DNA from: an uncultured bacterium
GTDB taxonomy: Bacteria > Patescibacteriota > Gracilibacteria > UBA1369 > PNNO01
DNA: 32,000 nucleotides
Direction of reading: 5' to 3'
Assembly (NCBI GenBank): GCA_963704705.1
Contig: OY969931.1
Location: forward strand, 690,001 to 722,000
A program made the position numbers and the translations under genes. This document shows positions 665 to 31,707 of this stretch, one piece after another. Within the stretch, counting starts at the first letter, position 1, and each line of letters starts with the position of its first letter. The notes beneath the pieces were generated by a model. The model ran no database searches, had not been told where the DNA came from, and saw only the letters and a list, made by a program, of their open reading frames with translations.

Positions 665-1870
665 TTAAACATTTTTTAATATATGACCCATTTTTTCTTT
701 TTTTGTTTGCAGATATTTATGATTTCTTTTATTCGGCGTTATCTCCAGAGGAATCCTTTTGTTTATTTTAAGACCATAACCTTCCAAACCAATAACTTTT
801 TTTGGATTATTAGTTAAAAGATCAATATTTTGAACTCCCAAATCTACCAATATTTGTGCTCCAATGCCATATTCTCTTAGATCTTCATCAAATCCCAGCA
901 TTTTATTTGCTTCAACTGTATCGTAACCCTGATCCTGCAAATTATAAGCTTTGATTTTGTTAATCAAGCCGATTCCACGACCTTCATGTCTTAAATAAAC
1001 CAATACACCTGATTTAGATTTCTGAATCAATTCAAGACTTTTAACCAGCTGACTATTACAATCACATCTTAATGATTTAAAAAGATCACCTGTCATACAT
1101 TCGGAATGGACTCGCACTAAAGTAGATTTTTGTTTGTTTATAGATCCTTTTTTAAGTACAACATGTTCTTTATCATTAATAAGATCTTTATAAATAATTA
1201 AATCAAACTCACCATATTCAGTAGGTAATTTAGCTTCGGCTGCCCGTTCTATTAATTTATCAGTTTTCCTTCTGTAAGCTATTAAATCGGCAATTGTTAT
1301 CATTTTAAGATTATGTTTTTGTGCAAATTTAACCAAATCTTTTTGACGAGCCATTTCTCCATCATCGCGCATAATTTCACAAATTGCTGCGCAAGGTTTT
1401 TTACCGGCTAAATTCATTAAATCTATCGCAGCTTCAGTATGGCCGGCTCTCACTAGAACCCCGCCTGCTTTCGAAATTAAAGGAAATATATGTCCGGGTT
1501 TTGAAAAATCTTCTGATTTAGACTTTGGGTTAGCAAGTGTTTTAATGGTAATCGCTCTGTCAGAAGCTGAAATTCCGGTTGTTACACCTTTTTTAGCGTC
1601 AATTGTTACTGTAAAATTACACCTGGTAAATTCTTCATTATTTTCCACCATTAATGGCAGCTTCAATTTTTTTGCTTTTTCATAAGATAGGGGAGCACAG
1701 AGTAAACCGCGTCCTTCTTTAATCATAAAATTGATCTTATCTGCTGTAATATCTTCAGAAGAACAAATAAGATCACCCTCGTTTTCCCGGTCTTTACTAT
1801 CGACTACTATAATAATCTCACCATTTTTTATGGCTTTTATAGCATCCTCGATAGGAGATAATTTATTCAT
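665..1870 (-). CDS. ribBA: Bifunctional 3,4-dihydroxy-2-butanone-4-phosphate synthase / GTP cyclohydrolase II
   Basis: 401 aa. The N-terminal half has DHBP-synthase motifs ([17 protein letters not shown]). The C-terminal half has the GTP cyclohydrolase II motif [21 protein letters not shown] and RHEGRGIGL. Confidence 0.9.
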
Positions 1871-1872
1871 TA

Positions 1873-2460
1873 TTAAATAGCGTATCTAACAAATTTCTCT
1901 AACTTAATATTTTCACCTATTTTAGTAATTGAATCAGTTAATAATTGTTCAATTGTTATTTCAGGATTTTTAACAAATGGCTGTTGCATCAAAGAAACCT
2001 CATCTCTGAATTTATTTTCTTTTCCAATCATAATCTGATCCCACATTTTTTCAGGTTTACCTTCTTCTTTTAATTGTTCTCTCCAGATTTCTTTTTCCTT
2101 TTCAATCAGTTCTTCAGGTACTTCATCAGGATTTATATACATTGGCGCAGTTGCAGCAATATGCATAGCAATATCTTTTGCAAGGTTTTTAAAGTCATCA
2201 TTTTTTGCAACGAAATCAGTTTCGCAGGCTAAATGCACCATTACGCCCAATTTAAAGTTTGGATGAATATAAGAAATTATAACTCCCTGGCCAGTAGTGC
2301 GTTCTGATCGTTTTGCAGCTTTAGCTACACCTTTTTTCCTTAGTAAATCAACTGCTTTATCCATATCTCCTTTTGTTTCATTTAAAGCTTCTTTACAAGA
2401 CATCATTGATACCCCGGTAATTTCACGAAGTTCTTTAATTTGTTCAACAGTAACATTCAT
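1873..2460 (-). CDS. tsf: Translation elongation factor Ts (short form)
   Basis: 195 aa. The N-terminal UBA-like block is [40 protein letters not shown]. It lies downstream of rpsB. Confidence 0.9.
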
Positions 2461-7674: not shown

Positions 7675-10098
7675 ATGAAAAATCCAAACAATGATTTGGC
7701 TACTGCAAAGCCAAAGAGAAAAGGATGGCTACTACTTGTCATTTCTTTAATTGTACTTATTGCTGCGGTTATAATAATTGTATTAACCCAAAGCGGTCAG
7801 TTCTTTAAAGGTGAAGTATCTGTCCAACCTGGTGTTTTAGGCCAGGCTGTAGTATCTAAAAGTTCAATAACCGAAATTTCCAATGGTCCTTTTCTGCATG
7901 TTTCAACCACACATGGTGTAGCTTGCCCAGTTGGATCTGTTTTAGGAACAGCTAGTTGTCCGTTTAGTACAATTGATGAAGCAGAGCAACAAATTAAAAG
8001 CAAAAATCTTGATACAGTTGAAATAAGACTTATGGGAGGTGATATTTTCAGAGATGAAAATGGAGTTGAATTATCTGGTGGCAGAAAATCAATTATTGGT
8101 GGATGGGATGAATCTTTCAGTAAAATTACAGATACTCCATCAACTTTCTTCTTTAATATCAAGATAAATAATGCAAATGGCTCAATCCAGAATTTGAATA
8201 CTTATAATGCCGGAACAGCCAAACCATTCATAGAAATTAATAATAATGGAGCAAGCGATGGTACAAATTTTGATGTTAAAAATATTATTTTTAATAATAT
8301 TATCAATACTAATAGTTTGATTAAGTTTTCGGGTGATAATTATAAATCAACCGGTACAATTGCAAATGTAATTGTCTATAATTCAAAAGTTACAAATGGA
8401 TCGTTGATTGAAGTTAATGGAAATCCGGCAGTTAAAATTCAAAGAAATCATTTGAATGCATCTGATGCCGATAATTCATTAATTCATGTTGATTCAAATG
8501 TTGAAATTACCAATAACTTAATTACAAATACACCAAGTAATGGAATGAATACTCAAAACGCAGTATTAATTGATTCAGGTGATGATGTTAAATTGATAAA
8601 TAATACTATCGTAAACAATAATTTTGCTGATTTTGCTGTAAAACAAACCGGTGAAGGTTTTATGTGGATTTTCAATAATTTGATTGATGATAATACAAAG
8701 GCTTTAATATTTAATATGGCTGAAATCAATCAGCTTACAGCAAAAGGCAACACCTGGGGAATCATAGATTATCGTGAAACCAAATCCCTTGGTGTAAATG
8801 AGACTTCAAATTTTAGCTGTAATCCTAAATTTGCTGGTGGTGATAAAAATTCACCATTATATTATAAATTAGGCGGCGATTCAGATTGTTTAGATAGAGG
8901 ATGGGGAGTTGATAATGTTGTTAAATTAGCAACCCCTGATTATTTTGGAGTGAACAGACCAACAGGTGCAGGAGTCGATCCTGGATTTAGTGAATATATT
9001 ATTAATTTTCAGTGGGCACCACTTGCACCAATACAAGTTGGTGTTTATAACTTTCCGCCAGTTTGCGGAAACGGCACACTTGAAAGTGAAGAAGAATGCG
9101 ATGATGGAAATACTGTTGATGGAGATGGTTGTAGTGCAACTTGTACTATTGAAGAAGAAATATCACCTGTTTGCGGTAATTCTACGGTAGAACAAGGAGA
9201 GCAATGTGATGATGGAAATACAACAAACGGTGATGGATGTTCATCTACATGCCAAACAGAACAATCAATAGCAGCTGTTTGCGGTAATGGTAACCTTGAA
9301 CAAGGTGAAGAGTGTGATGATGGAAATATTATTGATGGAGATGGTTGTAGCGCAATTTGTGAAAATGAAGAAGAAGATGTTGATCTTTGCCCAAATATAA
9401 CTGGTATTCAGACTGAAATTCCAACAGGTAAACATATTGATTCAAACGGAGACTGTGTCGATTCAGAAGCTCCTGATGCTTGTCCAAATATTTCCGGATA
9501 TCAATCTGATATTCCAAGCGGATATCAAAAAGACAGTAATGATAATTGCGTTCCTTTAGAAGAAGTTGCTTGCGGCGACTGGTCAGATGTAAGCGATAAC
9601 GACCCTGAGTATGACATTTGGGTTTGGTTATGCGACAGAGGCATCTTTAAAGGAAACGAAGATGGAACATTGAGACCTGATGATAAATTAACCAGAGCTG
9701 AATTATTGGCCTTGGCATTTAGAGCAAGTGATTATGAAAATGAATATGAATTAGATAATGAGGCGTCTTATTGTTTCAATGATGTAGATGATCAATGGTT
9801 TGCTCCGTACGCATGTACTGCTGCTGATTTAGGGTTTGTTGAAGGATATACCGGAAATGTATTCAAACCGGGTAATACCGTTATTCTTGCTGAAGGTTTA
9901 AAGATGTTCCTTGGGGCGCTTGATGAACCTTATGCAATCAATCCAAATCCAAACAGATGGTATTATGATATGTTGCAGGATGCAGCTGATAATAATTATC
10001 TACCATACACTTTAACTGATGAAAGTGTTGTTGGACCAATTGAACTAACAAGAAGAAAAGCAGCTAATATGCTTTATAGAATTCTTATCTACAGATAA
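7675..10098 (+). CDS. Large cell-surface protein: N-terminal TM anchor, parallel beta-helix-like region, Cys-rich repeats, CPNI modules, C-terminal SLH-like modules
   Basis: 807 aa. KGWLLLVISLIVLIAAVIIIVL is the TM segment. It is followed by Asn/Ile-rich degenerate repeats (NNIINTNSLIKF, VIVYNSKVTNGSLIEV, ITNNLITN, LINNTIVNN). Then come three copies of CGNGxLExGEECDDGNxxDGDGCSxxC and two of CPNI[TS]G[IY]Q[TS][ED]IP[TS]G. The end is SLH-like: WSDV...GIFKGNEDGTLRPDDKLTRAE and FNDV...GFVEGYTGNVFKPGNTV. Confidence 0.8.
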   Translation: MKNPNNDLATAKPKRKGWLLLVISLIVLIAAVIIIVLTQSGQFFKGEVSVQPGVLGQAVVSKSSITEISNGPFLHVSTTHGVACPVGSVLGTASCPFSTIDEAEQQIKSKNLDTVEIRLMGGDIFRDENGVELSGGRKSIIGGWDESFSKITDTPSTFFFNIKINNANGSIQNLNTYNAGTAKPFIEINNNGASDGTNFDVKNIIFNNIINTNSLIKFSGDNYKSTGTIANVIVYNSKVTNGSLIEVNGNPAVKIQRNHLNASDADNSLIHVDSNVEITNNLITNTPSNGMNTQNAVLIDSGDDVKLINNTIVNNNFADFAVKQTGEGFMWIFNNLIDDNTKALIFNMAEINQLTAKGNTWGIIDYRETKSLGVNETSNFSCNPKFAGGDKNSPLYYKLGGDSDCLDRGWGVDNVVKLATPDYFGVNRPTGAGVDPGFSEYIINFQWAPLAPIQVGVYNFPPVCGNGTLESEEECDDGNTVDGDGCSATCTIEEEISPVCGNSTVEQGEQCDDGNTTNGDGCSSTCQTEQSIAAVCGNGNLEQGEECDDGNIIDGDGCSAICENEEEDVDLCPNITGIQTEIPTGKHIDSNGDCVDSEAPDACPNISGYQSDIPSGYQKDSNDNCVPLEEVACGDWSDVSDNDPEYDIWVWLCDRGIFKGNEDGTLRPDDKLTRAELLALAFRASDYENEYELDNEASYCFNDVDDQWFAPYACTAADLGFVEGYTGNVFKPGNTVILAEGLKMFLGALDEPYAINPNPNRWYYDMLQDAADNNYLPYTLTDESVVGPIELTRRKAANMLYRILIYR
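9061..9360 (+). repeat. Three tandem 108-nt (36-aa) Cys-rich repeats inside the surface-protein gene
   Basis: Units start at 9061, 9169 and 9277, each with gtttgcgg(a/t)aa. The peptide type is the myxococcal-style cysteine-rich repeat (CDDGN..DGDGC). Confidence 0.8.
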
Positions 10099-10115: not shown

Positions 10116-10147
10116 GCTGCCTATTTAATTTATAGGCGGCTTTTTTT
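10116..10147. terminator. Bidirectional intrinsic terminator between convergent genes
   Basis: The stem is gctgcctat (10116-10124) with ataggcggc (10132-10140): 9 bp including one G-U. The loop is 7 nt. An A run lies upstream and a T7 run downstream (10141-10147). Confidence 0.75.
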
Positions 10148-10613
10148 ATATTGTAAGTGCAAATTGAATTAAATTCACAACAACCCACGCAACTAAAACA
10201 ATCACAATGCCTATTAATGCATTTTTAATTGTGCCTTTTGCCTTATCTTGGGCTTCCGAGGCTCCTGACATTATATACTGAAAACCAGCGATAACTAAAA
10301 ATAAAATTGCAACCAGTCCGGAAAGTCCAATAGCAAATTCAATAAAATAAACAATATAAAAAGGAATCATCCAGAATTTGATTTTGCCAGTAATAATTGA
10401 ACATGCGAGCACATCGTTTTTATCTGTTGTTGATTTTTTTTTAAAATCCTGAACAGGATCAGATGATATTTGAAAATCATCCATTAATTTGTTGCAATCA
10501 ACAGATACTGACTTTTCAGGCAATAAAGTTCCTGCTTCCTGCGCCAAAACTAAATTTGCAGTGTTTAAAAACAGTAAAAGTGCTAATATGCTTGTTGATA
10601 TAATTCGTTTCAT
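10146..10613 (-). CDS. Secreted two-TM small protein of the TrbC/VirB2-like (T4SS-pilin-like) type
   Basis: 155 aa. The signal peptide is MKRIISTSILALLLFLNTANLVLA-QE. The C-terminal part, LVAILFLVIAGFQYIMSGASEAQDKAKGTIKNALIGIVIVLVAWVVVNL, matches the hairpin pattern of pilin-like proteins common in reduced genomes. Confidence 0.5.
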   Translation of the reverse strand: MKRIISTSILALLLFLNTANLVLAQEAGTLLPEKSVSVDCNKLMDDFQISSDPVQDFKKKSTTDKNDVLACSIITGKIKFWMIPFYIVYFIEFAIGLSGLVAILFLVIAGFQYIMSGASEAQDKAKGTIKNALIGIVIVLVAWVVVNLIQFALTI

Positions 10614-10636: not shown

Positions 10637-11968
10637 ATGAAAGCGTTAATAGCTATTGTAGGAAGACCAAATGTAGGTAAATCAACACTCTTCAACCGAC
10701 TTATCGGAAAACGGCTTGCAGTAATATCAACTGAAGCAGGCACAACAAGAGATAGAATCTATCATGATTTTGAATTTGGTAAATTTGAAGCAACACTTGT
10801 TGATACAGGAGGTTTGGAATACGGTAAAAAAGAAAGTATTGAAGCTGATATTAAAGCGCAGGCGGAGTTAGCTATTGAAGAAGCGGATTTAATTTATTTT
10901 GTTTTGGATTCCAGTGAAGATCCGAATGTTGATGATTTTGCTGCAGCAGATATTTTAAGAAAATCTAAAAAACCAGTAATTTTGATTGCTAATAAGTATG
11001 ATCATAAATCAGCTGACGACAAAATGATTGAATTTTATAAATTAGGTTTCGGAGATTCAATCGGTGTTTCAGGAATACATAATATTGGTTTAGATGAGCT
11101 TATTGAAACAACAATAACTCAATTAAAAAAACTTAAATTCAGGCAAAAATCCAAAAAAAGAGTTAAATCTACAGAAGAAATCAAAATTTCATTCTTAGGA
11201 AAACCTAATGTTGGAAAATCTTCTTTAGTTAATGCACTTTTAGGCGAAGATCGCGTAATTGTTTCAGATATTCCCGGAACTACAAGAGATACTACCAATA
11301 CTTATATTGAATATGACAGAACTAAATTTACATTAATCGATACTGCCGGCCTTAAAAGACGCAGTAAGATCAAAAAGGGGATTGAGAAATTTAGCAGTTT
11401 AAGATGCTTTCATGCTCTTGATAACAGCGATATCGCCTTATTAATCATTGATTTTAATGAAGAAATCTCAAAACAGGATATGCACGTTGCTGAATTTATA
11501 TTGGAAGCTAAAAAAGGAGTAATAATTGTTGTTAATAAAGTTGATTTGGCTGAAGACGAAGAAGCTCGTGAAAAATTTGCCCGTAAAATTCAAAGAAAGT
11601 TCGTTTTTATGCCATGGGCACCATTATTATTTGTTTCAGCTCTGCATAGGAAGAATATTGAACAAATATATATTCTTGCAAAGGAAATTATTGAACAACG
11701 AAAAAAACGCATTCCTACTAGTGAATTAAACAATTTTGTTAAAAGAATTATTTATAAACACGTTCCTTCGGGCACAAAAAATATTAAACCTAAAATACTT
11801 TATGTTAGTCAAACAGGTATTAATCCACCGGAGTTTGTATTTTTTGTGAATCAGGCGAATGCGTTTCATTTTTCATATCGTAGGTATCTTGAAAACGAGC
11901 TTCGTAAAGCCTACGGTTTTCACGGGACCGCAATAACGTTTTGTTTTCGAAGTCGCCCTCCAAAGTAA
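10637..11968 (+). CDS. der: Ribosome-associated GTPase Der/EngA (two GTPase domains plus a KH-like domain)
   Basis: 443 aa. Contains GRPNVGKSTLFN and a second P-loop GKPNVGKSSLVN. The C-terminal FHFSYRRYLENELRKAYGFHGTAI is also typical. Confidence 0.95.
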   Translation: MKALIAIVGRPNVGKSTLFNRLIGKRLAVISTEAGTTRDRIYHDFEFGKFEATLVDTGGLEYGKKESIEADIKAQAELAIEEADLIYFVLDSSEDPNVDDFAAADILRKSKKPVILIANKYDHKSADDKMIEFYKLGFGDSIGVSGIHNIGLDELIETTITQLKKLKFRQKSKKRVKSTEEIKISFLGKPNVGKSSLVNALLGEDRVIVSDIPGTTRDTTNTYIEYDRTKFTLIDTAGLKRRSKIKKGIEKFSSLRCFHALDNSDIALLIIDFNEEISKQDMHVAEFILEAKKGVIIVVNKVDLAEDEEAREKFARKIQRKFVFMPWAPLLFVSALHRKNIEQIYILAKEIIEQRKKRIPTSELNNFVKRIIYKHVPSGTKNIKPKILYVSQTGINPPEFVFFVNQANAFHFSYRRYLENELRKAYGFHGTAITFCFRSRPPK

Positions 11969-12884
11969 CAAATCTTGAAAAATGACTGTATCTTAAATTG
12001 TAAATCTTTTGATATTTTTCACGCATATCAACATCGTGGAATTTAAGCATATTATCCTTAATTATTATGCCATCAGAATTTTCGAGTCTGATTGCTTTTT
12101 TTCTGCTGCGCGACATCTGCCATTTTTTTAAAAGGTTTTCAACTAGATTACCTGACCAGCCTTTAAAAGGAAATTCCAATATTTTTTGAATTCTTATTAA
12201 TATTTTAGATTCAGTAATTAAATGTTTTTGCTGATCTACTTCATAATCAAAATATTTATTAAGCCAAATGTTAGCTTTAATGAATTCTCTATATGTATCT
12301 TGACCTAATAAAGGTCTTAATAACCTGGTCCAGAAGGTTAAATATATATCGTCTTCTTTTTTTATTGAATTTAAATCCAGATTATCCTTAGAAATCATAA
12401 AACTTAAACAAAATCGACCACTTATTTTACTTCCATGCCTGCGAATACCAAGAATTTGCATAAATATCCACGAGAAAGTTCTCGCTAAATACAAACGATT
12501 TTGTTCACTAATAATGAAAAGGTCTATATCGCTGCCTTTTTCTGCATCATAAAAAGATAAACTATTACAAATAGCAACTGTTCTTATAAAAGGCAGTATT
12601 TGCATCCATTTAATATATTTTTTTGCCTTCCTAATTAGTTTATGCGCTCTTGTTTCTTTATCTTTTCTTATTTTTAAAGTTATCGAACGGCCTTTCAGAA
12701 AAACATAATTGTTTGATTCTAATACGAATTCCTGATGATCAATAAAATCTTGCAATTCTTTTAAAGTAGATTTTTTATCGAGTTTATAATCGCAAAGTTC
12801 TTCTTTGGTAAGGGCAAAATCAAAAATATCGAAAAAAACCATTGTTTTTACCAGCGACTCTTTCATACTGTAATCATTATACAT
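11820..12884 (-). CDS. Nucleotidyltransferase-fold (Pol-beta-like) protein of unknown function
   Basis: The motif CNSLSFYDAEKGSDIDLFII matches the [GS]S..x..DxD minimal NTase signature. The track ORF reaches 12935, but I prefer the Met at 12884 (or 12866), because 12935 leaves only 7 nt before the divergent uvrC. The 3' end overlaps der by 149 nt. Confidence 0.5.
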   Translation of the reverse strand: MYNDYSMKESLVKTMVFFDIFDFALTKEELCDYKLDKKSTLKELQDFIDHQEFVLESNNYVFLKGRSITLKIRKDKETRAHKLIRKAKKYIKWMQILPFIRTVAICNSLSFYDAEKGSDIDLFIISEQNRLYLARTFSWIFMQILGIRRHGSKISGRFCLSFMISKDNLDLNSIKKEDDIYLTFWTRLLRPLLGQDTYREFIKANIWLNKYFDYEVDQQKHLITESKILIRIQKILEFPFKGWSGNLVENLLKKWQMSRSRKKAIRLENSDGIIIKDNMLKFHDVDMREKYQKIYNLRYSHFSRFVTLEGDFENKTLLRSRENRRLYEARFQDTYDMKNETHSPDSQKIQTPVD

Positions 12885-12942
12885 AACTTGACGATTACTA
12901 GGATTTGGGGCTTTAATATACAGGCAAAGCAACAATTTTTCA

Positions 12943-24531: not shown

Positions 24532-25858
24532 ATGAATAATTCAGCTACTAAATTTTTTGCTGTTTATGATGATATCGAACCAAATGCAATTCAAATAGCT
24601 CAAAATGCTTTTATGCAGGATTCAAAATCGGCAGGTGCAGAAGTTGATCCATCTCAACGAAAACATAGTGCAGCTCAGGGATTTTTATTAAATGATGTTG
24701 CTTCAAATAATAGTGATTTAGATGGAAATCCTATTAATAACAATTTAGGATCAATCTTCGAAATGAAATCAGTAAGAAAAGCAATAAAACTTTATGATGA
24801 AGATATCACAACTGATCCTGATAAAAGAAGATACTTGGGACCTGGAGATCCACAACTTACAACTGTTGAAGCGGCTACTAAAGAAATTATTTTTGGAGAA
24901 GTGGATCCTCGAATAGTTACTGTACCTGTAGCAGGAATGGCTGTTGGATTTAAGGAAGCTGCTGAGCTAATTCAAAGAGAACATCCAGAAATTGATACAG
25001 TTATTAAAGGTTCAAATGGATATGGTGGTTACAATGGGCGTTTTAAGTAAATTATTCAAAAACTTGCTTTCGTACAGACATTCAACTGATGACAATAAAT
25101 TTGATTTTGATTCTTTTGAGAAAGCATTAAGAGATTTAGAAAATCCAGAGAAAGTTATGCTACTTATGCAGGCTGATGCTTATAATTATATAGGAGTTAA
25201 TCCAACTTCTGAGCAAAAGAAAAAAATAGTAGAACTACTTGAAGAACTTGGTATTTTTGTATTAGTTGATAGTGCTTACCAAGGCTTAGTTAAAAGCGTA
25301 GATGACGATGTAGAATTGGCTAGATTACTTGCTAAAACAAAGGTGCCATTTATGGTTTATGATTCTTATTCTAAAAAAGCACAGCTATATGGAATGCGAA
25401 TTGGCTTTTTACATTTTGCAACAGGTGATGAATCACAAGCTGCAATATTGCGCAAAAATCTTTTTGCACAACTAAGAAATAACCTGTTAACAGGTTCAAT
25501 TAATTTTAGAATTATTTATCAATTATTAAACGATTCTGAGTTAAAGAAAATTTGGTTAGAAGAAGATGTTCCAGCAGCAAGAAACATTTTAGTTAATACA
25601 AAAACTGAAATGTCAGAATTATTAGGTACTGGATTCGAATTTGTACATCCTAATGTTACTCAGGGAATGTTCAATGGTGTGCCAATAACTCACGAAGGTG
25701 GTAAATGGATGCAGGAAAAAGGACTTTATGTTGTTAATGCAAAAAATGAAGATACAGGTAAAGAAGCCCTAAGAGTAAATATGGGAAGTCTGGCAAAAGA
25801 TTCCCGCGAATATATTGCAGGAATAATTAAAGAGGCTCACGAAAAATATCCTGCTTAA
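24532..25858 (+). pseudogene. AspC/TyrB-like class-I aminotransferase split by a +1 frameshift near 25036-25047
   Basis: Track ORFs 24532-25050 and 24992-25858 are the N- and C-terminal parts of one protein. The second carries VDSAYQG, SYSKKAQLYGMRIG (PLP lysine) and LRVNMGS, colinear with E. coli AspC FDFAYQG, SYSKNFGLYNERVG and GRVNVAG. The first ends ...GSNGYGGYNGRFK*. The +1 frame continues GVLSKLFKNLLSYRH...FDFDSF, aligning with the AspC stretch ...SVFNSAGLEVREYAYY...LDFDAL. Confidence 0.7.
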
Positions 25859-28011: not shown

Positions 28012-28267
28012 AAAATTTAATTAAAAGTTAAGCCACAAGAATATAACAAAGAAATATAAAAAAGTAGAGTAAAAACATGTTTAAAAATATTTATTAGACG
28101 AACAAATAGTCGACTTTTTTATAAAAACGCCTTAAATCGCAAGTTTTAAGTATTGCGCTTATGTAAGCCAATAACTCAACATGAGCGACAGGTGAATACT
28201 AGATTTTAACATAATTTGTTATAAAATCACGCTCAGAAAACACATATTTTTTATAAACACATAATAC

Positions 28268-28291
28268 TTTGCACAAGATATATTGTGCAAA
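28268..28291. repeat. Perfect 9-bp inverted repeat TTTGCACAA-N6-TTGTGCAAA
   Basis: Read directly from the sequence. It lies 41 nt downstream of the Elp3 stop and about 260 nt upstream of pabA. It could be a terminator hairpin for Elp3 (the tail is only partly U-rich) or an operator. Confidence 0.5.
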
Positions 28292-28332
28292 ATTAGATAG
28301 AGGATTAGAAACAGTCACCTGTTCTGAAAATT

Positions 28333-29901
28333 TTAAATATTTTTTACCATATAATTTTCTACCAATTCAAATCCTAGCTTTTTATAATATTCACGAACAC
28401 CAATTCCACTAATTACAGCTAATTTGCTTAAATTGTGAGATTTGGTTATCTCCCCTGCCCTCTCAATCAATTTTTTTCCATACCCTTTATGCTGCACGCC
28501 TGCAATTCTCTTCTTATCAATGGGTATCTGGATTCCATAAGTGTGAAGTTCTCTAATTATAGAAGCGTTTTTTAAATCATCGATAAATGTTCTCGAAGGT
28601 ATTCTTAAGCGTAAAAAGGCGATTAATTTATCTTTTACAGTATCTTCAAAGCTTAAAAAGTACTCGGTTCCGCCTGAAGATTCATATTTGCGTTCAATTA
28701 ATTCTACTTTTTCAGGAATTATATTTTTGATTTCACGGCATCTAATACATTTGCATTCCACACCTTGTTTAGCCATTTTCTCTTGGATAATCTGGCGCAT
28801 ATTTGAGATTTTTGATCCCCCCAAAATACTTTCCGCCGGAATATCGCGATAAAGACGTGCAACTCGCACATATTCCGGAATAATTTTTTTCATTTCAATT
28901 AACAAATCAATTATTTCATCATCAGCGTATGGCTTATGTTTACCGGCTTTAAATATTTTTTCAAGTTCTGAATAAGGCGTTACTACACATGGGTATATTT
29001 TAAGCCAATCAGGTCTGAAATCAGGATCTTCAAATAATAATTTGAACATTTCAAGATCTTTTTTAATTGAACTTCCATATAAATTCGGCATTATATGGGC
29101 ATTTATTTTGAAACCTGCATCTTTTAGGAGTTTCATTGCAACACGTACCTGGTTTACGGTATGTCCCCTTTTATTTAAGTCCAAAATTTTATCATCAAGC
29201 GTTTGGATGCCTATTTCTACTTTAGTAGCGCCAAGTTTACGCATTCTTTTAATTTCATCTTCAGTTATCCAGTCAGGTCTTGTTTCTAGAGAAAGCCCAA
29301 CACAACGATGTTTTGCTGTTTCATTTTTCTTGATAGCAATTTCTAATGAAGTTGATTTTTTATCTTCATTAAGAGCATTGTAGACTTGTTTTATGAACTG
29401 TGTTTGATAGTTTTTAGGATAATATGAAAAAGTTCCACCAGCTACAATAATTTCAATTTTATCTGTTTGATGGCCGGTTCTTTCCAACCCTTTCAGTCTG
29501 TTCTTTACCTGATTATAACCATCAAAATCATTCAAAATAGCCCTCATCATTGCTGGCTCATTAGACAAGTAGCTCTTGGGCATTTCAGGTTCAGAAGGGC
29601 AAAAAATACATTTACCAGGACATTTATAATGCTTAGTTAAAACAGTTATATTGGCTATCCCGGATTCAGTACGAACTTTACGTTTTATAATTAAATTAAA
29701 AAATTTAGCATTATCTTGAATTTTCCCTTTAGTTATAAGATCTCTATAAGTTTTAATTAAGCTCACATTCGTTGGAGAACTGGTTCCATGAATTAAACTA
29801 TAGCTATTTTTTAATGCCTGTAGACTTTTTTGATCGATAATTTTGCGATTAATTGCATCAATTATCATATCTTCCAAAATTTGTTCCTGCTTGCTATTCA
29901 T
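28333..29901 (-). CDS. elp3: Elp3-type radical-SAM / GNAT acetyltransferase (tRNA U34 carboxymethyl-uridine synthase homologue)
   Basis: 522 aa. The radical-SAM cluster motif is CPGKCIFCP. Elp3 blocks present are EIIVAGGTFS, VGLSLETRPDWI, KVEIGIQTLDDKILDLNKRGHTV and LKIYPCVV. The C-terminal GNAT region is VQHKGYGKKLIERAGEI...GVREYYKKLGFE. Confidence 0.8.
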   Translation of the reverse strand: MNSKQEQILEDMIIDAINRKIIDQKSLQALKNSYSLIHGTSSPTNVSLIKTYRDLITKGKIQDNAKFFNLIIKRKVRTESGIANITVLTKHYKCPGKCIFCPSEPEMPKSYLSNEPAMMRAILNDFDGYNQVKNRLKGLERTGHQTDKIEIIVAGGTFSYYPKNYQTQFIKQVYNALNEDKKSTSLEIAIKKNETAKHRCVGLSLETRPDWITEDEIKRMRKLGATKVEIGIQTLDDKILDLNKRGHTVNQVRVAMKLLKDAGFKINAHIMPNLYGSSIKKDLEMFKLLFEDPDFRPDWLKIYPCVVTPYSELEKIFKAGKHKPYADDEIIDLLIEMKKIIPEYVRVARLYRDIPAESILGGSKISNMRQIIQEKMAKQGVECKCIRCREIKNIIPEKVELIERKYESSGGTEYFLSFEDTVKDKLIAFLRLRIPSRTFIDDLKNASIIRELHTYGIQIPIDKKRIAGVQHKGYGKKLIERAGEITKSHNLSKLAVISGIGVREYYKKLGFELVENYMVKNI

Positions 29902-29944
29902 TTACCTTTTTAGTAAGGTTGTTAGAGGTTTAATATTCTATATT

Positions 29945-30643
29945 ATGAAAGCCAAAACTGCAAAAGAATTACTTAAAAAAGTTAAGGAGGATTATAGTAA
30001 AATAGCACCTGAATTTGATGAAACAAGAAAATTTTTATGGCCGGAATTTGAATTCTTTAAAAAACATTTAAAAAATAATCTGACAATTTTAGATTTTGGA
30101 TGTGGAAACGGAAGACTCTATGAATTATTTGAAAATATTAATTATATTGGAATTGATAATAATAAAGAGTTTATCAGCCTTGCACAAAAAAATTATCCAA
30201 GTGCAAAATTTGTACTCGGAGATTTGATTGAAATGCTTTCGCCTTATCAAGCGGATTTAATCTTTAGTATTGCAGCGTTTCATCATGTACCTTCCTTGGC
30301 ATTGCGCAAAAAAAGTATTCATACTTTAAGGCAAAATTTAATGAAAAATGGCCTCCTTATAATAACTGTTTGGAACCTTTTTCAAAAGAAATATTTTAAA
30401 TATATTCTTAAATCAATATTTAATTTTTTTATTAAATTTGGTAAATATGATTGGAACGATACGTTTATTCCATGGGGAAAATCAGGAATAAAAAGATATT
30501 ATCATGCTTTTACACCTAGTGAATTAAAAAGATTATTTCAAAAAAACGGTTTTGAAATACTGGAAATGTTCTATACTCGTAAAGGCGAAAAAGTCCCTTT
30601 TTTAAAATCTCATAATATTTGTTTAATATGCAGGAAGAAATAA
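29945..30643 (+). CDS. Class I SAM-dependent methyltransferase with Trm9/ALKBH8-MTase-like blocks
   Basis: Starts at the ATG at 29945; the track ORF extension from 29843 is antisense to the Elp3 start. Contains DYSKIAPEFDETRKFLWPEF, ILDFGCGNGRL, DLIFSIAAFHHVPS, LLIITVWNLFQ, DTFIPW and RYYHAFTPSEL. These are colinear with yeast Trm9 VYNEIAPHFSQTRYKPWP, DVGCGNGKY, FAISIAVVHHWST, YCWALEQ, DVFVPW and RYYHLYREGEL. Confidence 0.65.
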   Translation: MKAKTAKELLKKVKEDYSKIAPEFDETRKFLWPEFEFFKKHLKNNLTILDFGCGNGRLYELFENINYIGIDNNKEFISLAQKNYPSAKFVLGDLIEMLSPYQADLIFSIAAFHHVPSLALRKKSIHTLRQNLMKNGLLIITVWNLFQKKYFKYILKSIFNFFIKFGKYDWNDTFIPWGKSGIKRYYHAFTPSELKRLFQKNGFEILEMFYTRKGEKVPFLKSHNICLICRKK

Positions 30644-30648
30644 AAGTA

Positions 30649-31419
30649 ATGGATGTCCGGTTTAATAATGTATCTATGGACGAAGCATTAGACTTTATTT
30701 TCCATGCAAATAAAAAAGGTTACATTTGTACGCCCAACCCTGAAATGCTTTTAGAAACACAAAAAAATCATAAGTTTTTAAAAGTACTAAATCATTCACT
30801 TTTAAATATTCCGGATGGAATAGGTATTTTATGGGCAGCTACACAAATAATTAATAACGCATCAAAACTGATTGCATTATTAAATTTACCACTTATTGTC
30901 TTATATCCGGGTAAATTTAAAAAAGTATTAAAACAAAGAGTAACTGGAACAGATCTTTTACAAAAAATCTGTCAAAAGGCTGCAAAAAATAATACAAAAT
31001 TGTTTTTTTTAGGAGCTGCAACAGGAGTTAGTGAAAATGCAGCTCAAAAGCTTGAACATTTTTATCCGGGATTAAATATTGTAGGAACGCATGCTGGTTC
31101 ACCTTCACAATATGAACAAAAAGAAATCATTGATTTAATTAACTCTACGGATGCTGAAATACTTTTTGTTGCATATGGAGCACCAAATCAGGAAATGTGG
31201 ATTGCCGATTCAATTAATAAACTTAAAAATATAAAAATAGCTATTGGAATAGGAGGAGCTTTTGATTTTATTTCGGGTCGAAGAAAAAGAGCACCTAAAA
31301 TCATGCAAAAATTGGGACTTGAATGGTTATTCAGGTTAATTCAGGAGCCCACTCGTATAAAAAGAATCTATAATGCTACAATTAAGTTTCCTATAGAAAT
31401 TATTAAACGACTAAAGTGA
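30649..31419 (+). CDS. WecB/TagA/CpsF-family (GT26) glycosyltransferase
   Basis: Contains PDGIGILWA, VTGTDL, ILFVAYGAPNQEMWI and IGIGGAFDFISGRRKRAPKIMQKLGLEWLFRLIQEP. The ATG at 30649 is preceded by AGGAAG. In-frame alternatives are the ATG at 30628 and the TTG at 30619. Confidence 0.8.
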   Translation: MDVRFNNVSMDEALDFIFHANKKGYICTPNPEMLLETQKNHKFLKVLNHSLLNIPDGIGILWAATQIINNASKLIALLNLPLIVLYPGKFKKVLKQRVTGTDLLQKICQKAAKNNTKLFFLGAATGVSENAAQKLEHFYPGLNIVGTHAGSPSQYEQKEIIDLINSTDAEILFVAYGAPNQEMWIADSINKLKNIKIAIGIGGAFDFISGRRKRAPKIMQKLGLEWLFRLIQEPTRIKRIYNATIKFPIEIIKRLK

Positions 31420-31707
31420 TTATTTTTTCTTTGGCCTGCCTCTTTTCTTTTTAAATTCCTGCTCTCCCCTTTCCTTCAGATTTTCAATAATAGGTTTTAT
31501 ATGTTCCAAAATCGAATTCGCCATATGTAGTGGCTTGTAAATGAATTCATTTACTTTTTCAAGAGTATCTCGTGCCAAATAAGAAGCTTTACTGACATCT
31601 CTAAGGATCGTAATCAAATAAACAGTAGCGATTGCCAAAAGAATGCCGAGCAACAGGATTACCGCAGCAAGAACGATATAAAGCAAATTGAGTGGATTAT
31701 CAAACAT
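31420..31707 (-). CDS. Small single-TM protein (DUF948-like helical tail) ending in a basic GRP/AT-hook-like KKKRGRPKKK
   Basis: 95 aa. The N-terminal TM segment is LLYIVLAAVILLLGILLAIATVYLITIL. The family resemblance is weak. Confidence 0.45.
   Translation of the reverse strand: MFDNPLNLLYIVLAAVILLLGILLAIATVYLITILRDVSKASYLARDTLEKVNEFIYKPLHMANSILEHIKPIIENLKERGEQEFKKKRGRPKKK

Follow-up and report, generated by a model that had tools for sequence, protein, structure and literature searches.

The window analyzed here, a stretch of 32,000 nucleotides of bacterial DNA, carries two divergent genes that we predict to act on the wobble uridine (U34) of tRNA. One encodes Elp3, a radical S-adenosylmethionine (SAM) protein with an acetyl-CoA domain, and the other a Trm9-like SAM-dependent methyltransferase (hereafter MT); their coordinates and those of the features around them are collected in Table 1. 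An earlier note, drawn from the letters of the window, had described a 522-aa minus-strand Elp3, a divergent 232-aa methyltransferase and a 43-bp gap between them, and all of this matches the open reading frames (ORFs). The program-made ORF list begins MT at TTG 29843. We set the start at ATG 29945 on account of the length of the homologues (232-235 aa) and of a public gene call on an identical contig, which leaves the start codons of the two genes 43 bp apart. Every motif that the note had singled out could be located, both in Elp3 (CPGKCIFC, GGTFS, ETRPDWI, EIGIQTLDD, KRGHTV and QHKGYGKKL) and in MT (IAPEFDETR..WPEF, DFGCGNG, SIAAFHH, TVWNLFQ, TFIPW and RYYHAF).

Table 1. Features of the Elp3-MT locus, in window coordinates (MinElp3, Elp3 of M. 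infernus; Sc, numbering of yeast Trm9).
Feature	Position	Strand	Basis
Elp3, 522 aa, radical-SAM and GNAT/KAT domains, predicted tRNA wobble-uridine carboxymethyl-forming enzyme	28333..29901	-	TIGR01211, Pfam, PDB
Radical-SAM [4Fe-4S] motif CPGKCIFC, aa 94-101	29599..29622	-	alignment to MinElp3
Zinc-site triad CKCIRC, aa 383-388	28738..28755	-	alignment to CRCIRC of MinElp3
Acetyl-CoA motif QHKGYGKKL, KAT/GNAT domain, aa 470-478	28468..28494	-	alignment to QHMGYGRML of MinElp3
Divergent spacer between start codons, 43 bp	29902..29944	.	sequence
MT, Trm9-like class I SAM methyltransferase, 232 aa, predicted tRNA (cm5U34) carboxyl O-methyltransferase	29945..30643	+	PDB, HMM, Foldseek
N-terminal substrate-binding segment Y17...FDETR28..WPEF (ScTrm9 Y18, R29)	29993..30049	+	alignment
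SAM motif I DFGCGNG, aa 50-56, and acidic D71 (ScD72)	30092..30157	+	alignment
SIAAFHH, H113/H114 (ScH115/H116)	30266..30286	+	alignment
TVWNLFQ, W143 and Q147 (ScW145, Q149)	30365..30385	+	alignment
TFIPW177...R184-Y-Y186-H (ScW168, R241, Y243)	30461..30511	+	alignment
Terminator-like hairpin, 11-bp stem and T-rich tail	28266..28293	-	consensus scan match
GT26 (WecG/TagA/CpsF) glycosyltransferase	30628..31419	+	Pfam PF03808, PDB 7mpk
95-aa single-pass membrane protein, convergent with GT26	31420..31707	-	no Pfam match; conserved position

The assignment of the minus-strand protein to the Elp3 family is secure. The TIGR01211 ELP3 model, named in the earlier note as a check, recognizes it at 585 bits, far over the cut-off of 350, with residues 17-522 aligned to model positions 7-522. 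Pfam Radical_SAM and Radical_SAM_C match as well, and weak GNAT matches below the Pfam cut-off cover residues 424-517. Among solved structures it matches Elp3 of M. infernus (6ia8, 1.6e-132) and of Dehalococcoides mccartyi (DmcElp3; 5l7j, 7e-111), followed by the Elp3 subunits of yeast, mouse and human Elongator at about 1e-103 (the solved Elp3 range extends to 1e-101). The M. infernus protein is the closer relative, with 446 bits versus 375 bits for the Dehalococcoides protein. All three radical-SAM cysteines are kept, CPGKCIFC aligning with CPHGKCIFC of MinElp3; the spacing in the window is Cx3Cx2C, one residue less than the Cx4Cx2C of M. infernus Elp3. The acetyl-CoA motif QHKGYGKKL is intact, as is the zinc triad CKCIRC, whose cysteines are conserved among bacterial and archaeal Elp3 proteins (PMC6367351). 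Since the alignment to MinElp3 begins at residue 21, the window Elp3 has an N-terminal extension of the archaeal type. In archaeal Elp3 this extension binds the anticodon stem-loop, and the basic extension is missing in DmcElp3 (PMC6367351). The runner-up NCBIfam model was TIGR01212 (MnmL/YtqA), which scores 74.6 bits over residues 197-374, partial and below its cut-off of 180; we therefore rejected an identity as MnmL/YtqA.

For MT, the earlier note had proposed a closer kinship to Trm9 and the ALKBH8 methyltransferase than to a generic Methyltransf_11, and this is borne out by sequence, profile and fold. The best PDB match in a phmmer search was Yarrowia Trm9 (5cm2_Z, 7.5e-16; next 1.3e-8), and among solved structures only Trm9 aligns across MT residues 27-212, the others being limited to the Rossmann core. 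A profile of the MT family built from 43 sequences again ranked 5cm2_Z at the top of the PDB (4.6e-23, 85 bits; next 6e-17, 65 bits). The AlphaFold2 (AF2) model of MT has a predicted local distance difference test score (pLDDT) of 95.4, and Foldseek placed 5cm2_Z on top among 1404 PDB chains at E<=0.001, by a narrow margin, as expected for the class I methyltransferase fold. A hidden Markov model (HMM) built from 21 named fungal Trm9 proteins, a subfamily profile of the kind that the note had called for, recognizes the window MT over its full length at 81 bits (model 14-216 on residues 10-212). It gives 48-123 bits to the other MT homologues in the fetched loci, except for the Chloroflexota MT of a Caldilineaceae locus (L029, 22.8 bits), and 21-36 bits to the four solved methyltransferases ranked just behind Trm9. 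Certain automated JGI annotations label members of this family "TRM9" or "ALKBH8".

The residues on which catalysis by Trm9 depends are also present. In the yeast enzyme (ScTrm9), R29, D72, H116, W145, W168, R241, Y243 and N271 are required for activity: R29A retains about 5% activity, D72A does not bind SAM, H116A and W145A are inactive, and changes at W168, R241 or Y243 leave little or no activity (Létoquart et al., PMC4678810). In the model of that study, R29, H116, R241 and Y18 contact the carboxylate of 5-carboxymethyluridine (cm5U), H115 and N271 contact the uracil, and W145 stacks on it (PMC4678810). MT residues Y17, R28, D71, H113, H114, W143, Q147, W177, R184 and Y186 align to this active site, R28, D71, H114, W143, W177, R184 and Y186 corresponding to yeast R29, D72, H116, W145, W168, R241 and Y243. 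Across the 43 MT homologues, R28, D71, H113, H114, W143, Q147, W177, R184, Y185, Y186 and the DFGCGNG columns are invariant, and Y17 is conserved in at least 90%. The equivalent of N271 is probably N224, judged by its position in the model, where it opens the final strand behind a hairpin particular to this lineage. The active-site residues are largely retained in Elp3-linked MTs of other Patescibacteria, Aenigmatarchaeota, Pacearchaeota and Chloroflexota. MT therefore has a Trm9-type active site and fold.

The two genes are linked well beyond this genome. Using the window Elp3 as query against one genome per GTDB species, we recovered 42 true Elp3 loci, 39 of them with upstream DNA. In 19 of these 39 we saw a divergent MT homologue, with -20 to +108 bp between the two gene starts, and six further Elp3 loci have a MT at 0.5-5 kb. 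The 19 paired loci come from a range of Patescibacteria, from four Aenigmatarchaeota with a distance of 34-35 bp and from two Chloroflexota with distances of 60 and 108 bp, so that the head-to-head linkage spans Patescibacteria, Chloroflexota and DPANN archaea. A reverse scan of the 80 metagenome loci most similar to MT found a divergent Elp3 upstream of MT in 48 of the 68 that had at least 300 bp of sequence there. In most loci of relatives the spacer measures from -34 to about 140 bp. Synteny across relatives had been suggested as a check, and the pairing is thus kept, across domains. The genes outside the pair vary from lineage to lineage. Because the pair recurs across phyla and domains with differing flanks, the adjacency goes far beyond chance, and it bears the signature of functional coupling rather than of an inherited syntenic block. 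The Elp3 and MT distance matrices are correlated (Mantel r = 0.76, 0 of 2000 permutations), which is expected for any two vertically co-inherited genes and is therefore consistent with coupling, not discriminating.

Judged from these sequence comparisons, it is likely that this Patescibacteria (Peregrinibacteria-like) bacterium encodes a two-step route of U34 modification of the archaeal/eukaryotic type. Stand-alone Elp3 would use its [4Fe-4S]/SAM radical and acetyl-CoA (KAT) domains to carboxymethylate C5 of U34, yielding cm5U, and MT would then methyl-esterify the carboxylate with SAM to give 5-methoxycarbonylmethyluridine (mcm5U), which might subsequently be 2-thiolated. Such a route might also stand in for MnmE/MnmG. 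The candidate tRNAs would be the U34 species that read A-ending codons, which are dominant in a genome of 31% GC. The proposal in the earlier note of a complete bacterial mcm5U-type pathway thus gains support from the protein families, the active site and the synteny, with mcm5U as the predicted product.

Similar chemistry is known from archaea and eukaryotes. Haloferax volcanii (HVO_2888 / HVO_1032) likewise has a stand-alone Elp3, without Elp1,2,4-6, together with a Trm9 homologue, and its Trm9-Trm112 makes mcm5U from cm5U (PMC6144793). The gene clustering is also alike in Sulfolobus, where clustering of Elp3 and Trm9 genes in S. solfataricus was reported in 2008 (PMC2584109). The window Elp3 is nearest to archaeal Elp3 and shares its type of N-terminal extension; in contrast to the archaeal system, the host here is bacterial, MT is coupled to a glycosyltransferase of family GT26, and Trm112 was not found in the window or related loci. 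Eukaryotic Elongator with Trm9-Trm112 or ALKBH8-TRMT112 has the same predicted chemistry (cm5U to mcm5U) and the same Trm9 active-site residues. The window system does without the Elp1-6 scaffold subunits of Elongator. MT is about 23-25% identical to Yarrowia Trm9 and, unlike the eukaryotic enzymes, has 34 extra residues, a helix among them, inserted between W143 and W177. In ALKBH8 the Trm9 domain is fused to AlkB/RRM, whereas relatives of the window MT are fused to GT26.

Bacterial precedents exist for parts of the system. DmcElp3, described as a rare bacterial example (PMC6367351), is also a stand-alone Elp3 with radical-SAM, KAT and zinc sites, but it lacks the basic N-terminal extension that the window protein has. 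The literature that we found on DmcElp3 does not mention a downstream methyltransferase, whereas the related Chloroflexota loci L028 and L029 carry a divergent MT. MnmE/MnmG(/MnmC) and MnmL(YtqA)/MnmM (which we take to be YtqB) act on the same target, the C5 side chain of U34, and MnmL is a distant radical-SAM relative of Elp3. Their side chain is an aminomethyl group, as opposed to the carboxymethyl ester predicted here, and neither Pfam nor PDB searches gave a MnmM-type match for MT.

Probes for MnmE, MnmG and MnmA, which were approximate sequences, found only the Der GTPase domains in the window and one MnmA in the related loci. The single MnmA lies in locus L036, where an MnmA-type 2-thiouridylase homologue (1245-2264, minus strand), 42% identical to an approximate sequence of E. 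coli MnmA, is convergent and sits directly after Elp3 (1-1221). Its position adjoining Elp3 hints that cm5 or mcm5 and 2-thiolation (s2) may be combined on the same uridines.

MT has a further conserved neighbor. The gene that follows it encodes a GT26 protein (Pfam PF03808, 1.9e-56, 190.9 bits; TIGR00696, 153 bits) whose best PDB match is TagA (7mpk, 2.9e-51). It falls under the cut-off of every equivalog model (TarA, WecG and EpsA), but has the PDG catalytic motif and otherwise, too, the appearance of a normal enzyme of the TagA type. It is thus, like the TagA/TarA/WecG enzymes of wall teichoic acid, enterobacterial common antigen and secondary cell-wall polymer synthesis, a full-length GT26; we know of no GT26 coupled or fused to a Trm9-type methyltransferase. 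Both of its possible starts, TTG 30619 and ATG 30628, precede the MT stop at 30643, and the overlap from the ATG is 16 bp. A same-strand GT26 directly follows MT, mostly with an overlap of 10-25 bp, in 55 of 63 loci with downstream DNA, and GT26 is the most strongly conserved neighbor of the window MT subfamily. The earlier note had remarked on the overlap and called the gene an odd operon mate; the overlap is there, but the note underrated the gene, which is a conserved partner of MT. Among 67 loci with both flanks, 35 have Elp3 and GT26, 14 Elp3 only, 14 GT26 only and four neither. A homologous convergent small ORF follows in 35 of the 50 loci with DNA past GT26, and also beside fusion genes. 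Its product in the window, 95 aa long, has a single transmembrane helix and a tail rich in lysine, and a Pfam search gave no match for it. A four-gene block is therefore conserved: divergent Elp3 and MT, then GT26, then the convergent small membrane protein.

The two proteins have also become one. Searching for the MT family at E<=1e-30 gave 1130 clusters at 50% identity, and among its long members Pfam recognized MT-GT26 fusion proteins of 480-515 aa, amounting to at least 26 full-length clusters at 90% identity and two partial ones. The clusters are 53-86% identical to one another, are annotated as Peregrinibacteria or Gracilibacteria, and form a sister clade to the window MT subfamily. At least 24 contigs carry one of these fusions, two independent samples yielded identical copies of another, and all share a short conserved linker (...GNHxVVARPFLASR...). 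We rejected an assembly artefact as their source on these grounds; recurrence and a shared linker indicate that the fusions are real and old. Four of the five fusion contexts examined have a divergent Elp3 at 16-34 bp. The AF2 model of one fusion, with a predicted TM score (pTM) of 0.82 and a confident linker, suggests a fixed packing of the MT and GT26 domains. In the fusion clade (alignment A2), the equivalent of Y186 (ScY243) is mostly C, A, V, I or L, as in RYCH or RFAH, and the other catalytic residues are invariant.

Elsewhere MT and GT26 keep other company. In one subclade (loci L057, L059, L068, L072, L082, L084, L095 and L111), co-oriented MT and GT26 genes come after type IV pilus genes, and the nearest 4 kb contain no Elp3; the pilus genes (ATPase, pseudopilin and PilC-like) were recognized by N-terminal sequence only. 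A phosphomannomutase/phosphoglucomutase-like gene with a 'YDIRG' N-terminal motif is found downstream of MT in L007, L011 and L086 and near it in L006. It recurs where the GT26 neighbor is missing, and is thus a second sugar-metabolism neighbor.

Several observations weigh against a purely tRNA-directed, two-step route. Roughly one in four to one in two of the Elp3 or MT loci lack the partner nearby. The GT26-MT link is at least as tight as the Elp3-MT link and is retained without adjacent Elp3 in 14 of the 67 loci with both flanks. A role in tRNA modification alone would not predict the fusions in the sister clade, and the mcm5U model leaves the GT26 half of the four-gene block unexplained. 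Trm9 requires Trm112 in eukaryotes (PMC4678810) and in Haloferax (PMC6144793), and motif scans and tblastn with approximate YcaR and yeast Trm112 queries found no Trm112-like ORF in the window and 124 related loci (0.92 Mb), in agreement with the earlier note, which had seen none in the window. A neighbor-joining tree groups the Elp3-linked MTs with fungal Trm9, apart from four fragment outgroups, but with the weak support of just 53 of 100 bootstraps, and we do not lean on it. Finally, Pfam and NCBIfam match MT to generic class I methyltransferase families alone, so those libraries cannot decide whether it belongs with Trm9.

This last point could be taken to mean that MT is just another class I methyltransferase, which lies next to Elp3 by chance and has a function unrelated to it. 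Class I methyltransferases resemble one another in fold, and the large number of PDB chains matching MT fits such an idea. Yet 19 of 39 Elp3 loci and 48 of 68 MT loci keep the pairing, in several phyla and with changing flanks, Trm9-specific motifs beyond the Rossmann core align over the full length, and a 45-bit gap on the Trm9 HMM separates the window MT from the best outgroup. Synteny and the reciprocal HMM effectively refute chance adjacency, which we regard as barely credible. A weightier possibility is that MT mainly serves GT26 and not tRNA, esterifying a uronic-acid sugar such as N-acetylmannosaminuronic acid (ManNAcA), which the WecG branch of GT26 uses as donor, or another envelope component, with the Elp3 adjacency inherited and secondary. 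The usually overlapping GT26 genes, the settings without adjacent Elp3 such as those behind type IV pilus genes, the many stable fusions with their conserved linker and confident model, and the normal, PDG-bearing character of the glycosyltransferase would all fit. On the other hand, the whole Trm9 substrate-binding signature, including the modeled uracil readers H113, N224 and W143, is kept in every context class, and most of the fusion genes examined stand head to head with Elp3. The Elp3-MT link is also much older and more widespread, reaching three phyla in two domains, and GT26 is absent from distant lineages with the pair. To our knowledge, no methylated uronic-acid polymer exists in GT26 systems. 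We consider this explanation unlikely; as we read the data, the chemistry of MT goes back to an ancestral link with Elp3, and the MT-GT26 link is later and clade-specific.

Alternatively, Elp3 might act on tRNA with an end product other than mcm5U, because MT is inactive without a Trm112-type partner, because MT acts on another Elp3-derived intermediate, or because GT26 takes part in a hypermodification. No Trm112-like gene was found in the neighborhoods examined, the Y243 equivalent is usually replaced in the fusion clade, and the four-gene block with GT26 and the small membrane protein hints at extra steps. ALKBH8 offers a precedent for a Trm9 domain fused to a second tRNA-modifying domain, and Haloferax diverts cm5U rapidly to other products without Trm9 or Trm112 (PMC6144793). 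Against this, the other catalytic residues are intact and strongly conserved, which argues for an active enzyme with the substrate of Trm9. We also know of no GT26 enzyme that acts on RNA, and give this alternative only a slim chance. A still more speculative scheme would make the fusions and the block central: in the Peregrinibacteria/Gracilibacteria-type candidate phyla radiation (CPR), Elp3, MT-GT26 and the convergent membrane protein might form one module that replaces MnmE/MnmG, with GT26 as a Trm112-type partner or tether, or as catalyst of a further step (a glycosylated or extended xm5U, or a link between wobble modification and envelope). We regard this as improbable.

The mcm5U route in its simple form would be new mainly for its host. 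The textbook view is that bacteria make xm5U34 with MnmE/MnmG. A review of 2017 found bacterial homologues of the Trm112-partner methyltransferases, Trm9 included, not detectable, and archaeal Trm9 restricted to Sulfolobales and Halobacteriales (PMC5372719). Our literature search found no paper tying Elp3, Trm9 or relevant tRNA modification to Patescibacteria/CPR. The idea is less new than the earlier note implied, because the clustering of Elp3 and Trm9 in Sulfolobus was reported in 2008: archaeal clustering was known, and the bacterial case is new. If our reading is true, bacterial Elp3 gains a downstream partner, and the distribution suggests that the two genes travel, and are passed on, together. 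Biochemistry would gain small, possibly Trm112-independent Trm9 enzymes, and there would be a pointer to how ultra-small genomes decode abundant A-ending codons. The operon and fusion link of MT to a TagA-like glycosyltransferase is an unexpected, concrete oddity that can be tested.

The terminator-like hairpin sits 40 bp past the Elp3 stop, within a 320-bp gap before PabA, and this consensus match suggests that Elp3 is perhaps transcribed alone. The 43-bp spacer contains two overlapping promoter-like matches; the scan returned 13 matches in total versus 20 in shuffled sequences, and we therefore make no promoter claim.

Apart from this locus, the window is a stretch of ordinary bacterial chromosome with a GC content of 29-35%, encoding S2, EF-Ts, Der, UvrC, Obg, Pth and L21 as well as a pseudouridine synthase, TyrRS, RecG and PabA/PabB; the nearest relatives carry the labels Peregrinibacteria, Patescibacteria or Gracilibacteria, and a protein identical to MT is recorded from a contig of 1.37 Mb, in keeping with a small genome. 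The sole tRNA is Leu (CAA), and a scan of the window with Rfam gave nothing apart from it. An 807-aa surface protein with DUF4215 repeats and S-layer homology (SLH) domains (7675-10098, plus strand) lies beside a 155-aa protein resembling type IV secretion system (T4SS) pilins (10146-10613, minus strand). SLH domains usually bind secondary cell-wall polymer. A TagA-type enzyme synthesizes the linkage unit of that polymer, and the surface protein therefore offers an ordinary candidate role for GT26. A 371-aa ORF with a TTG start (11820-12935, minus strand), for which Pfam gave no match, shares about 150 bp with the 3' end of the gene for the Der GTPase (10637-11968); probably its true start lies later, or the ORF is spurious. 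An aminotransferase of class I/II (24532-25858, plus strand) seems to be divided between two ORFs that overlap in different frames, one at 24532-25050 (172 aa, without a Pfam match) and one at 24992-25858 (288 aa, profile positions 118-353). A sequencing error, a frameshift or decay to a pseudogene could account for this.

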